This document shows, in pieces, positions 3,540 to 16,311 of a stretch of 64,000 bases of DNA. This DNA is from an uncultured Gemmatimonadales bacterium (lineage in GTDB: Bacteria > Gemmatimonadota > Gemmatimonadetes > Gemmatimonadales > Gemmatimonadaceae). The notes beneath the pieces are model-generated. The model had not been told where the DNA came from and ran no database searches. It saw only the letters and a list, made by a program, of their open reading frames with translations. Each line of letters opens with the position of its first letter. Position 1 is the first letter of the stretch. The translations under genes were made by a program, and so were the position numbers. The stretch spans positions 4,576,001 through 4,640,000 of the forward strand of contig OY969695.1 in the NCBI GenBank assembly GCA_963701965.1, written 5' to 3'.

Positions 3540-6377
3540 ATGTCGAACGCTGCGAAACTCAAAAAGAAAGCTGCCGAGTTCGAGCAAAAGAAGCAGTTCG
3601 ACAAAGCGCTGCAGCTCTATATCCAGATTCTGGACGAGAGCGACGGTGACGATGAGGAAGCGGACGTCGCGCTGTATAATCGCGTGGGCGATCTGCTCAT
3701 GCGGCAGGGCAGCGTCGGCGATGCCGTCAACTACTACGAGAAGGCGGTCGATCTCTACGCCGAGAGCGGGTTTTTCAACAACGCGATCGCGCTCTGCAAC
3801 AAGATCCTGCGCCAGTCCCCCGGCCGCAACTCGATCTACTACAAGTTGGGGAAGATCAGCGCCAAGAAGGGGTTCATCAGCGACGCCAAGCAGAATTTCC
3901 TCGAGTACGCCGACCGCATGCAGAAGGCCGGTCAGCTGGACGAGGCGTTCCGCGCGCTGAAGGAGTTCGCGGACCTCTGCCCGGATCAGGATGACATCCG
4001 GCTGATGCTCGCCGAGCAGCTCTCGAAAAAGGATCGCAAGGGCGAGGCGATCGAGCAGCTCCAGCACCTCTACGAGAAGTTCACGGCCGAGGGGCGGGGC
4101 GCCGAGGCGCGCGCCACAGTAGACCGCATGAAGGCGATCGACCCGTCGGTCGAGCCAAAGACCGGCGGCGCCAATCGGCGCGAGAAGTCGAGCGACCTGA
4201 TTTTCATCGACCTGTCGGACAGCGCGCCGGCCAAGGCGGCCGACCGCGAGCCGTCACGGAAGACGGTCAAGCTGCCCGTATCGGCGGAAGTCGACGCGCT
4301 GGATGATCTTCCGTTGTTGGACACGAACGACGCGGGCGAGGACGACTTGCTGCCGTTGCCGCCGCTCGACGAGGCCGATCTGGAACCGCTCGACGTCGCC
4401 GAGGTCTCCGGCCTGGAGACGATGGCGGAATTCTCGGCCGAAGCGGTGGAGGCTGGCACCATCAGCGGTTTCGAGCAGACGGTCCTCGATGACGAAACCG
4501 GCGCCGCGGACACCGACACGGCGGAGCCCTCCGAAGCCACGGCCGCCGACGAAAGCGACGAAATCGACGGGGTCGACGACGTCGATGACCTGCTGCCCGA
4601 TCTCGAGCCGCCGCTCTCCGGGAGCGAATTCGCCGAGCTCGAGCTGGGTCCTCCGACGGACGAGCATCCCGACGCCCGCGCGCACACGCACGACCTGGCG
4701 CTACCCGGACGGCTGCCGTCGCTCGATGACCATGGTCCTGGCGCACTGTCGTTGACAGGGGAGATGGAGCTGATCATCCCCGAAGTCGACATTCCGCCGA
4801 TCCCGCCGCTCCGGCGGAAGTCGGGTCCGTCGGCGCGACCCGCACCGCTGGCCGCCCCACCACTGGCGCGGCCGCCCAACGGCGCGCTGGAAGTGGACTT
4901 TACGCCGGAAGTGGACGCCAGCGACATTGATGGCCGATCGGCGTCCGCCGCCTCGGCGCTCCCGCTCATCGACGGGGCAGACTCGCTCCGGCCGGCCACG
5001 CCGTCCGATGGCGATGCGGCGCAGACATGGTCGAACGGCGACGCGCCGGCCGAAGCCCTGGGCGAGCTGCCGATGCTCGACGACGAGACGCCAGCGGCGC
5101 CGGCGCCCGTCGCCGAGGAGCCGCCGCCCGTCGCCGAACCGGTCGTGTCCGATGATGATCTCATCGACGATGTGTTGTTGAACCTGGACAAGCCGTCGGC
5201 GCGACGGCCCTCCGGAGGACGCCGGGTCTCGGGAAGCAAGCGCGTGTCCGGCGGCTCCAAGCGGGTTTCCGGCGGCGGGAAGCGGGTGTCGGGTTCCGGC
5301 AAACGGATCTCGGGCTCGGGCAAGCGCATCGCCGCGCCGATGCGCCACTCGCAACCGGCGCCGACCCCTTCGGTCAACGACCTGCGCGAGCAGTCCGTCA
5401 GCGACGCGGACAACTGGACGCTGCGCCGGCAGCTGGCCGAGGCGTTGCTGGAGGATGGGGATCGCGCGGCGGGGTTGCAGGAGTTGGAAGCCGTCATGCT
5501 GGGCTTGGAGCATGCGCGCGACCTGGAAGGCGCGCGGTCCGTGGCCGACGAGATCATCCGGCTCGATCCCAACTCGGTGCGGCACCATCAGAAGCGCGTC
5601 GAGTATGCGTTCCGCGCCGCCGACAAACCGCGCTTGGCCGAGATGTACCTCGAGCTGGCCGACGCGCTCTTCCGCGCGGGGCACGCGGACAAGGCGCGGG
5701 CCGTCTATCAGCGCGTGCTGGAGCTGGCGCCCGATGACCTGCGCGCGCAGGCGGCCCTGAGCACGTTCGGACCGCCGGTCGAGGAGACGGACGAGGCGCT
5801 GGCGGTCGAGGAGAGCGCCATCGCGGTCGCCGAGTCGCCCGCCGACGGCGATTTCGTGAATCTCAGCGACTGGTTGCAGGAGGATGAGGCGCCGAAGTCG
5901 ACCCGTATGGTCGTCGATGAGGAGGCCCCGAGTGGCGATGAAGCGGCCGACTTCAACGACATGCTCCGGAAGTTCAAGCAGGGAGTCGCCGAGAATGTCG
6001 ACGACGAGGACTTCGAGAGTCACTACGATCTGGGCGTCGCGTACAAGGAGATGGGCCTGGTCGACGAAGCCATCGCGCAGTTCCAGAAAGCGCTGCGCGG
6101 CGCCAGGGGACGGGTGCGCACCTATGAGGCGCTCGGCCAATGTTTCCTGGAGAAGCAGCAGTTCCGCGTGGCGGCTACGATCCTGGGCCGCGCGCTGACC
6201 GAGCCGGGCGTCGCGGACGACCAACTGGTCGGCGTCCTCTACCTGCTGGGCTACGCGTCGGAGGCGTTACGGGCGCCGGCGGACGCGCTGATGTACTATC
6301 AGCGCGTGTTCGCCGTCGACATCCAATTCCGCGATGTGGCCGACCGCCTGGCGCGGTTGGAGAAAGTGGGGCGGTGA
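3540..6377 (+). CDS. Large TPR protein with acidic disordered linker (SgmX-like architecture)
   Basis: N-terminal TPR helices, long D/E/P-rich middle, C-terminal TPRs with SHYDLGVAYKEMGLVDEAIAQF. Confidence 0.85.
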   Translation: MSNAAKLKKKAAEFEQKKQFDKALQLYIQILDESDGDDEEADVALYNRVGDLLMRQGSVGDAVNYYEKAVDLYAESGFFNNAIALCNKILRQSPGRNSIYYKLGKISAKKGFISDAKQNFLEYADRMQKAGQLDEAFRALKEFADLCPDQDDIRLMLAEQLSKKDRKGEAIEQLQHLYEKFTAEGRGAEARATVDRMKAIDPSVEPKTGGANRREKSSDLIFIDLSDSAPAKAADREPSRKTVKLPVSAEVDALDDLPLLDTNDAGEDDLLPLPPLDEADLEPLDVAEVSGLETMAEFSAEAVEAGTISGFEQTVLDDETGAADTDTAEPSEATAADESDEIDGVDDVDDLLPDLEPPLSGSEFAELELGPPTDEHPDARAHTHDLALPGRLPSLDDHGPGALSLTGEMELIIPEVDIPPIPPLRRKSGPSARPAPLAAPPLARPPNGALEVDFTPEVDASDIDGRSASAASALPLIDGADSLRPATPSDGDAAQTWSNGDAPAEALGELPMLDDETPAAPAPVAEEPPPVAEPVVSDDDLIDDVLLNLDKPSARRPSGGRRVSGSKRVSGGSKRVSGGGKRVSGSGKRISGSGKRIAAPMRHSQPAPTPSVNDLREQSVSDADNWTLRRQLAEALLEDGDRAAGLQELEAVMLGLEHARDLEGARSVADEIIRLDPNSVRHHQKRVEYAFRAADKPRLAEMYLELADALFRAGHADKARAVYQRVLELAPDDLRAQAALSTFGPPVEETDEALAVEESAIAVAESPADGDFVNLSDWLQEDEAPKSTRMVVDEEAPSGDEAADFNDMLRKFKQGVAENVDDEDFESHYDLGVAYKEMGLVDEAIAQFQKALRGARGRVRTYEALGQCFLEKQQFRVAATILGRALTEPGVADDQLVGVLYLLGYASEALRAPADALMYYQRVFAVDIQFRDVADRLARLEKVGR
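5202..5330 (+). repeat. Degenerate coding repeat, about 7 x [RK]R-x-S-G units
   Basis: RRPSGGRRVSGSKRVSGGSKRVSGGGKRVSGSGKRISGSGKRI. Confidence 0.85.
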
Positions 6378-14955: not shown

Positions 14956-16311
14956 ATGTTCAAGAAAGTTCTGATCGCCAACCGCGGCGAGATCGCGCTG
15001 CGGGTGATTCGCGCGTGCAAGGAGCTGGGCTTGCAGACGGTCGCCGTGTATTCGGAGGCCGACCGCGAGTCGCTGCACGTCCGGTTCGCCGACGACGACG
15101 TGTGCATCGGACCGGCGCCTTCGCGCGACTCCTACCTGAAAATTCCGCGGCTCATCGCGGCCGCCGAGATCACCGGCGCCGACGCCATCCATCCGGGCTA
15201 CGGCTTCCTGGCCGAGAACGCCGAGTTTGCCGAGACGTGCGCCGCGTCGAACATTGCGTTTATCGGTCCAACGGCGGCGCAGATCCGGGTCATGGGCGAC
15301 AAGGCCGCCGCCCGGAGCGCGATGTCGGCCGCGGGCGTGCCGATCATTCCGGGGACGACCGGGCCGGTCGAGGATGTCGACGAGGCCCTGAGCTTCGCCA
15401 AGAGCATCGGGTTCCCGGTCATCATCAAGGCGGCGGCGGGCGGCGGCGGAAAGGGCATGCGCGTGGCCCGCGATGTCGACGAGTTCCCGCGGTCGTTCCA
15501 GCTGGCGCGCTCGGAAGCGCTGTCGGCGTTCGGCTCCGGCGACGTCTATGTCGAGAAGTATCTGGCCCGGCCCCGGCACATCGAATTCCAGATCCTGGGC
15601 GACACCCACGGCCACGTGATCCACCTGGGCGAGCGCGACTGCTCGGTCCAGCGCCGGCATCAGAAGCTGATCGAGGAGGCGCCCAGCCCGGCGGTCAGCC
15701 CGGATCTCCGGCAACGCATGGGCGATGCGGCGGTCAAGGGCGCGAAGTCGATCGACTATGTGGGCGCGGGCACGATCGAGATGCTGCTCGACGAAGATGG
15801 GTCGTTCTACTTCATGGAGATGAACACGCGCATTCAGGTCGAGCATCCGGTGACGGAGATGCTGACCGGCGTGGATCTCGTGAAGGAACAGATCCGCGTG
15901 GCCGCGGGCCTGCCGCTGTCCGTGTCCTCCTTGCCGCCGCTCCGCGGGCACGTCATCGAATGTCGTGTCAATGCCGAGGATCCGGCCCGGAACTTCCAAC
16001 CGTCGCCCGGGCGGATCATCGCGTTTCATCCGCCGGGCGGGCCCGGGGTCCGACTCGACACGCACGTCTACGCGGGCTACACGGTGCCGCCCTACTACGA
16101 CTCGTTGCTGGCCAAGCTCATCTGTGAGGGCCGGGACCGCGAGGAGGCGCGGATGCGCATGCGCATCGCGCTGGAAAGCTTCATCATCGAGGGCGTGACG
16201 ACGACGATCCCGTTCCTGGCCCGCGTGATGGAGAACCCGCGCTTCCGCGCCGCCGAAATCGACACGAAGTTCCTCGAACGCGAAACGGATCTCATGAAGG
16301 AGCCGGCGTAG
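14956..16311 (+). CDS. accC: Biotin carboxylase
   Basis: [52 protein letters not shown]. Confidence 0.98.

Follow-up and report, generated by a model that had tools for sequence, protein, structure and literature searches.

Does a bacterium distant from the myxobacteria carry a counterpart of SgmX, the MglA effector of Myxococcus xanthus, and if so, what are its neighbours doing there? In M. xanthus, the last three tetratricopeptide repeats (TPRs) of SgmX bind MglA-GTP, while its repeats TPR1–8 activate pili and TPR9–11 bind FrzS (PMC7668184, PMC9811614; papers are cited by PubMed Central identifier, for the accessible part of their text). SgmX has so far been described from myxobacteria alone, plus a remote homologue in Bdellovibrio. 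We analysed a 64,000-nucleotide window from an uncultured, soil-type Gemmatimonadales bacterium (GCA_963701965.1; C1:4576001-4640000, where C1, OY969695.1, is the genome's single 5.1-Mb contig). By its named homologues, the window belongs to Gemmatimonadaceae. An earlier reading of these letters (the sequence-only reading) had pointed to two large proteins with TPRs and acidic disorder and to a PilT/PilU ATPase near accB and accC, all of which lie where it placed them. One of the two large proteins, TPR1, is a divergent SgmX orthologue, an assignment that reciprocal best hits at both of its ends let us make with high confidence. The other, TPR2, had been grouped with it as SgmX-like and does not qualify.

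The best NCBIfam match of TPR1 is the SgmX model NF052243 (E 8.9e-34), which matches one locus in the genome, TPR1, at both ends. At 116.9 bits, TPR1 does not pass this equivalog model's cut-off of 1800 bits. The model is narrow: another myxococcal SgmX scores just 776 bits, and M. xanthus SgmX, obtained via a primer from the supplement of PMC7519303, scores 2047. With TPR1 as query, SgmX was the top match in three of three genomes of myxobacteria (E 2e-16 to 3e-20, against 1e-5 for the next unrelated protein); with SgmX as query, the top match in this genome was TPR1 (1e-16 and 5e-16, against 2e-4 for the runner-up). Profiles of the N-terminal block and of the C-terminal M-domain, built from myxococcal sequences alone, put TPR1 first of 45,902 open reading frames (ORFs), with domain E-values of 5e-19 and 4e-26 against 6e-3 and 2e-5 for the runners-up. 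Fifteen columns were invariant over 18 Gemmatimonadota and 16 Myxococcota C-terminal sequences, some of them in helices upstream of the TPRs. The proposal that TPR1 is a SgmX homologue is thereby borne out at both ends of the protein.

An AlphaFold2 model (98 sequences in the alignment) places TPR blocks at about residues 3–200, 612–742 and 801–944. It has 11 helices at 3–200, disorder at 213–605 (predicted local distance difference test score, pLDDT, below 50), 8 helices at 612–742, short helices at 775–780 and 801–819, and 7 helices at 825–944. On the window, the protein and its parts are:

3540..6377, plus strand: TPR1, 945 aa, an SgmX orthologue of divergent sequence (NF052243; M. xanthus SgmX is its reciprocal best hit)
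3546..4139, plus strand: N-terminal TPR block, aa 3–200, collinear with SgmX 4–202, the first part of the pilus-activating domain
4176..5354, plus strand: disordered, mostly acidic and poorly conserved linker, aa 213–605 (pLDDT<50, composition, conservation profile)
5373..5765, plus strand: middle TPR block, aa 612–742, 8 helices, either the remainder of the activating domain or a polar-anchor domain
5850..6371, plus strand: homologue of the SgmX M-domain at the C-terminus, together with two conserved helices ahead of it (hhalign probability 99.7, E 5e-26)

The C-terminal match, from the comparison that the sequence-only reading had called for, falls within A813–L1060, the SgmX fragment reported to bind MglA-GTP (PMC7668184). 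At the other end, TPR1 5–208 aligned with SgmX 4–202 (hhalign probability 98.9, E 4e-17), and deeper alignments against SgmX 1–128 raised the probability to 99.8. Of the pilus-activating domain of SgmX (TPR1–8), residues 4–202 are covered in this way; the other ~90 residues may lie in the middle block or be missing. The linkers are alike in charge, with 21% Asp and Glu and a net charge of -49 over residues 226–604 of TPR1, and -83 over 441–735 of SgmX. Within the TPR1 linker, aa 551–604 (5190–5351) form a short Arg/Lys-Ser-Gly repeat with a net charge of +16, which is unconserved in relatives.

The middle block is harder to place. It sits where the FrzS-binding S-domain (TPR9–11) would, and it matches all four SgmX repeat blocks almost equally (probability 97–98). 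Myxococcal profiles of the SgmX 330–440 and 735–795 blocks did not find TPR1 in a search of the genome's ORFs. Two homologues of 595 aa (L225 and L226, in G068 and G070) have the N and M blocks without a middle-block match, which suggests that this block may be dispensable. One further homologous ORF (L229, G131:C9) contains three M-domain-like copies.

The genome also encodes the expected partners, although not beside TPR1, as the idea of one polarity locus would have had it. Adjacent mglB-mglA genes were found at C1:1026098-1027288, with mglA directly after the mglB-like gene and recR and dnaX alongside, a context reported for deltaproteobacterial mglA (PMC3983030). The MglA matches PDB entry 6HJH (E 1e-84) and the MglB matches NF052242 with a score under the cut-off; a group 1 MglA and an MglB, the pair looked for in a SgmX system, are thus both present. 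This MglA (L003:646-1320, minus strand) has a ~35-residue insertion after position 160 that is absent from M. xanthus MglA, common to families f1–f3 and apparently missing from f4–f8. An MglC-like gene lies at C1:391724-392176 (E 2e-8), followed directly by a single-domain response regulator (C1:391724-392598 for the two). A RomX-like domain (C1:336963-338372, minus strand; L238:3964-5373; E 2.5e-7 to 8ZNA) forms the C-terminus of a zinc-ribbon and low-complexity protein, where M. xanthus RomX stands alone.

The pilus genes pilB-pilT-pilC and pilA-pilM-N-O-Q lie at 3.97–4.00 Mb, ~0.6 Mb from the window. pilB, pilT and pilM scored over their cut-offs, pilN and pilO were recognised by Pfam, and pilC, pilA and pilQ were best hits under cut-off; on these genes, the genome encodes a type IVa pilus (T4aP) machine. 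A third PilT-family paralogue, with an N-terminal extension, was found at C1:1313261-1314910 (minus strand). Two flagellin-family matches at C1:3478439-3480899 make it probable that the bacterium bears flagella in addition to pili. A chemosensory-type cluster (C1:591117-603426) contains a second MglA; from its sequence, the cluster reads as cheA-/cheC-like, large TPR, PATAN-like, roadblock, second MglA and DnaA-like ATPase genes. The protein at C1:591117-592751 in this cluster has a weak SgmX M-domain-like region (E 2e-4 and 2e-5).

Across genomes, 124 of 151 Gemmatimonadota had the C-terminal domain, including 30/31 and 73/74 in the two main families, as did 58/71 Myxococcota and 63/81 Acidobacteriota (a tally that counts the unpublished genome G250, excluded from all else). 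N and M blocks shared one ORF in all 21 Acidobacteriota loci fetched. We scored the domain (E<=1e-20) against MglA (E<=1e-40) in 65 of the 150 other Gemmatimonadota genomes, namely all 43 outside families f1–f3 and 22 within, the latter including both domain negatives of those families. G026, whose gene is cut by a contig end, was scored positive; four weak domain matches (E 1e-13 to 1e-15) and six distant MglA-like matches (28–32% identity) were scored absent. Both were present in 31 genomes and neither in 30, with the domain alone in 2 and MglA alone in 2 (concordance 61/65). The Acidobacteriota gave the same picture at thresholds of 1e-15 and 1e-30 (n = 80; both 61, neither 16, discordant 3; concordance 77/80). 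PilM was found in 60/65 and PilT-family genes in 61/65 of the Gemmatimonadota. The MglA-binding-type domain is gained and lost together with MglA; it does not follow pili.

Natural half-proteins add to this pattern. The N-terminal half alone is kept in place in G085 and G101, where MglA is diverged or missing, and the M-domain occurs without the N-block, together with MglA, in five of five genomes of one genus. In G039, mglA and the pilT match are each interrupted by a stop, and pilM gave no match. In a quick, unfinished domain tree, the three phyla separate except for one long branch, which is consistent with vertical descent of the domain without proving it.

We therefore consider how TPR1 might work. 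By analogy with M. xanthus, MglA-GTP would bind the C-terminal TPRs, which is very probable; binding would relieve an intramolecular block across the acidic linker and bring the N-terminal block of repeats to the pole at which PilB is engaged. The N-block would then promote T4aP extension at one pole, and PilT and PilU would retract the pili. Pilus activation by TPR1 is likely in itself, as is the sequence of binding followed by polar extension; GTP-dependent binding, release of autoinhibition, polar targeting and PilB recruitment are all carried over from M. xanthus.

Several observations weigh against this reading. TPR1 and SgmX share just 25–35% identity, in two blocks, and 117 bits compare poorly with a family cut-off of 1800. 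The polar anchor of M. xanthus, the S-domain that binds FrzS, has no assignable counterpart in profile comparisons, and a C-terminal motif of RomR was absent from every ORF, although no profile search for RomR was made. The genome has two MglA proteins, so the partner GTPase is not certain, and it carries flagellin-family genes too; we found no literature report of twitching in Gemmatimonadota. The co-occurrence thresholds were set after viewing the data, some genomes are discordant (in G103 and G082 the domain occurs with no close MglA; in G085, G039, G247 and G290 it is the other way round), and the counts are a pattern rather than a statistical test because related genomes are not independent. 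PilM is kept in 27 of the 30 genomes that have neither domain nor MglA, so the protein is not generally needed for pili in Gemmatimonadota. Conversely, G057, assembled as a single contig, has retained MglA plus a gene for the M-domain alone and gave no match to PilM or PilT, which indicates that the MglA link can outlast pili.

How far do these points favour other explanations? Were the likeness generic, with TPR1 unrelated to SgmX, a score far under the curated cut-off would be expected, and PDB sequence and fold searches might return generic TPR proteins alone, as they did; the PDB search, however, listed no solved SgmX structure that TPR1 could match. The matches at both ends are collinear and in the same order, a gap of more than 10 orders of magnitude separates them from other TPR proteins, and neither the conserved non-TPR helices upstream nor the MglA co-occurrence fits a chance resemblance. 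The reciprocal searches and the myxococcal-profile ranking largely refute this explanation, to which we give next to no credence. The similarity proved more than generic, SgmX and TPR1 matched reciprocally, and mglA and T4aP genes are present, whereas the opposite of each had been named beforehand as fatal to the idea.

A SgmX-family MglA effector might alternatively have a non-pilus output, serving envelope biogenesis, secretion or division from a hub at the pole. The likeness to Bdellovibrio Bd2492, which lies in a tamAB operon (PMC3983030) and whose pilus role was not examined, would suit such a hub, as would a domain that tracks MglA rather than PilM/PilT, the state of G057, the unassignable S-domain and the envelope-gene neighbours (ispB, ppiD, ftsK). 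It sits less well with the strong conservation of an N-block homologous to the pilus-activating domain, which is kept in pilM-positive genomes with lost or altered MglA (G085, G101), or with a PilU-type gene that stands in the block with full-length TPR1 and is missing in five of five examined genomes without TPR1; we regard it as unlikely. It is more improbable still that TPR1 works mainly with the second MglA and relays a chemosensory signal to pili. Two MglA paralogues do occur here and in most Gemmatimonadales sampled, the second among cheA/cheC-like, PATAN-like and TPR genes, but the chemosensory cluster has its own weakly M-domain-like protein, and genomes with a single MglA match (G112, G131 and the g58 genomes, for example) keep the domain. 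MglA-dependent activation of pili by TPR1 thus stays our preferred reading.

What, then, of the genes around TPR1? The order in the window runs hutI, TPR1, polyprenyl synthase, DUF4321, ppiD (on the opposite strand), TPR2, aroQ, Xaa-Pro peptidase, accB, PilT/PilU ATPase, accC, comB and ftsK. The neighbours are:

6374..7381, plus strand: long-chain polyprenyl diphosphate synthase, IspB/HepT-like (PF00348; 4-nt overlap with the TPR1 stop)
7378..7665, plus strand: DUF4321 small membrane protein (PF14209)
7667..9502, minus strand: PpiD/SurA-like peptidyl-prolyl isomerase (PF13623, PF00639, PF13145)
9578..11686, plus strand: TPR2, uncharacterised TPR/disordered protein, 702 aa (without NF052243 match)
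11683..12132, plus strand: aroQ, type II dehydroquinase (TIGR01088, over cut-off)
12116..13216, plus strand: Xaa-Pro aminopeptidase, M24 (PF00557, PF01321)
13245..13760, plus strand: accB, biotin carboxyl carrier protein (TIGR00531, over cut-off; start is the ATG at 13245)
13753..14946, plus strand: PilU-type retraction ATPase (TIGR01420, over cut-off, 449 bits against 319)
14956..16311, plus strand: accC, biotin carboxylase (TIGR00514, over cut-off)

The arrangement is not due to chance, because the gene orders recur: TPR1-ispB-DUF4321 in 20 of 20 Gemmatimonadota loci fetched and accB-ATPase-accC in 15 of the 20. DUF4321 (7378–7665) trails the polyprenyl synthase wherever the synthase was seen in Gemmatimonadota loci, with TPR1 present or absent. 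By gene spacing, the minus-strand ppiD divides the plus-strand genes into two runs, and TPR1, which ends ~6.9 kb before accB, is therefore probably not co-transcribed with the acc genes. A promoter and terminator scan stayed at chance level (1 against 1.2 and 5 against 7.1). The genes do not form the single interwoven module that had been envisaged, since ppiD splits the runs and the pil cluster and mglBA lie outside the locus; what we see is better read as the vestige of an old block of genes than as a self-contained module.

The ATPase at 13753–14946 and M. xanthus PilU are reciprocal best hits at 55% identity and group together in a FastTree tree, apart from canonical PilT (support 99), while canonical M. 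xanthus PilT pairs with the genome's pilB-pilT-pilC copy. The ATPase is therefore a PilT/PilU-family protein distinct from that copy and closest to M. xanthus PilU. We took MXAN_1995 as the M. xanthus partner from its uvrD-rplM-rpsI..recX-bamD context and C-terminal disordered tail; PilU (MXAN_1995) is reported to be a second retraction motor required for S-motility (PMC13584747). The window protein lacks the 112-aa disordered tail, and its gene separates accB from accC, whereas that of MXAN_1995 follows rplM-rpsI. Because the clade also takes in a second paralogue from M. xanthus, we cannot be sure that the two are one-to-one orthologues. The ATPase gene stands between accB and accC in families f1–f3 and in G093; among the loci examined, those of f5, f6, f7 and f9 do not have it there.

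The M. xanthus order is pilM..pilQ, a 230-aa gene, mglC, efp, accB, accC, sgmX, an ExeA-like ATPase and tamB, with accB-accC-sgmX just downstream of pilM..pilQ-mglC-efp; the setting given in the sequence-only reading, next to accB/accC near the pil cluster, was thus confirmed in the genome. Retention of this acc linkage holds in part: acc lies within 10 kb of TPR1, but it is no marker of the family. Among 19 Myxococcota loci picked from a phylum-wide sample, 5 had accBC before sgmX and 7 had efp there, accompanied by aroQ or not; the remaining 7 had none of these genes before sgmX, and mglC was nearby in 12 of the 19. None of 21 Acidobacteriota loci had acc within the 14–20 kb fetched around sgmX. 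Nor does acc depend on SgmX. Five of five Gemmatimonadota examined without MglA lack TPR1 and the ATPase there, yet have an unbroken ispB-DUF4321-ppiD-aroQ-efp-accB-accC block. Because the block persists where the SgmX-like gene is lost, and because acc is missing from the Acidobacteriota loci, the link looks like inherited gene order rather than function, and is as such of low interest.

One could still imagine that SgmX, PilU and acetyl-CoA carboxylase are co-regulated, coupling lipid synthesis to the piliated pole. accBC directly precede sgmX in 12 of 13 loci near M. xanthus (retrieved with the M. xanthus primer), and here pilU overlaps accB by 8 nt, lies 9 nt from accC and is probably co-transcribed with them. 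We hold such integration to be very improbable, given the wider phylum and the Acidobacteriota, the position of TPR1 in the other plus-strand run, the five genomes whose block is intact without TPR1 and pilU, and two (G045, G131) with full-length TPR1 and no pilU in the block. Rather, sgmX tends to stay by an old housekeeping block, neither side depending on the other, and the acc genes appear to be neighbours with no part in the mechanism. The surrounding genes are best read as leftovers of a TPR2-mglC-aroQ-pepP-efp-accB-accC block with sgmX nearby, shared with Myxococcota and Acidobacteriota, from which mglC has gone elsewhere, as has efp in this family, and in which a PilU-type gene now stands between accB and accC.

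TPR2 belongs to this history. It has N-terminal TPRs, one internal TPR-like motif (290–330) and acidic Pro/Ala-rich linkers (net -22 and -44). Conservation begins at Met23, and the ATG at 9644 is probably the true start; four tandem five-residue repeats in the linker (~11085–11145) are unconserved. As a second SgmX it was rejected (no NF052243 match, not among SgmX matches, N-profile E just 5e-3), as was a correspondence to the 230-aa gene upstream of M. xanthus mglC, which appears unrelated.

A profile of the internal motif, built from Gemmatimonadota sequences alone, matched 26 of 80 genomes (20/71 Myxococcota and 6/9 Acidobacteriota) and did not match in M. xanthus. In 24 of the 27 loci returned, the gene lay directly before mglC or was fused to it; of the other three, one preceded aroQ-efp and two were other TPR proteins. 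The Acidobacteriota matches are homologous to TPR2 as a whole (E 1e-22 to 1e-30 with its N-terminal profile), and four of six genomes have the order TPR2-mglC-accB-accC. This adjacency independently supports the proposed ancestral block. Since it recurs, with fusion, in two other phyla, TPR2 is a candidate, and on fusion and adjacency alone a likely, uncharacterised partner of MglC; its retention in G054 and G078, both without MglA, weighs against such a partnership. No description of a TPR2-type protein was found in the accessible text of the MglC literature consulted (PMC4719450, PMC10329633).

Taken furthest, these results would fit an ancient MglA-SgmX pole switch for pili, vertically inherited in Gemmatimonadota, Acidobacteriota and Myxococcota and once encoded with MglC around aroQ-efp-accBC, which the Gemmatimonadota would run without RomR and FrzS and with TPR2, lost from M. 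xanthus, as a polar scaffold; we offer this only tentatively and think it rather doubtful as a whole. How SgmX activates PilB is an open question in the literature. From a counterpart in two phyla abundant in soil, one would predict that polar piliation is under MglA control there too; the comparison marks residues conserved over a long distance, and the natural N-only and M-only half-proteins separate two SgmX functions. TPR2 would be a polarity component absent from the model organism.

Group 1 MglA in Gemmatimonadetes and Acidobacteria (PMC4316618) and type IV pili genes in Gemmatimonadota (PMC10581226) have already been noted. We found no literature report of SgmX in Gemmatimonadota or Acidobacteriota, most subscription papers and most supplementary figures being outside the search. 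Among known systems, SgmX of M. xanthus (MXAN_5766; partners MglA-GTP, FrzS and SopA; PMC7519303, PMC7668184, PMC9811614, PMC11580455) is likewise a large all-helical TPR protein, and TPR1, its reciprocal best hit, shares the collinear N-block, long acidic disordered linker and C-terminal M-domain, as well as a genomic setting with MglA/B, MglC-like, RomX-like and T4aP genes and accB/accC less than 10 kb away. Unlike SgmX, the first TPR block of TPR1 stops at about residue 200 rather than 290, and one middle block stands directly before the M-domain in place of two separated blocks. The gene lies upstream of the acc block in the other run, not directly downstream, with no ExeA-like or tamAB genes behind it and the pil cluster 0.6 Mb off; the RomR motif was not found in the ORF scan, and SopA is reported in Myxococcales alone (PMC11580455).

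Bd2492 of Bdellovibrio bacteriovorus, compared by description and not by sequence, is also an MglA-interacting polar TPR protein, called a remote SgmX homologue, but it has 353 aa, lies in a tamAB operon and works in a cell without MglB (PMC3983030). With the M. xanthus MglC locus (MXAN_5770; PMC4719450, PMC10329633), the window shares the slot before aroQ, here held by TPR2, whose homologues precede mglC in Acidobacteriota and whose motif is fused to or before MglC in many Myxococcota; it differs in that M. xanthus is without the TPR2 motif and in that mglC lies away from the window, at C1:391724-392176. We thus see in this locus a known system in divergent form, in phyla new to it, and in TPR2 a new candidate component.

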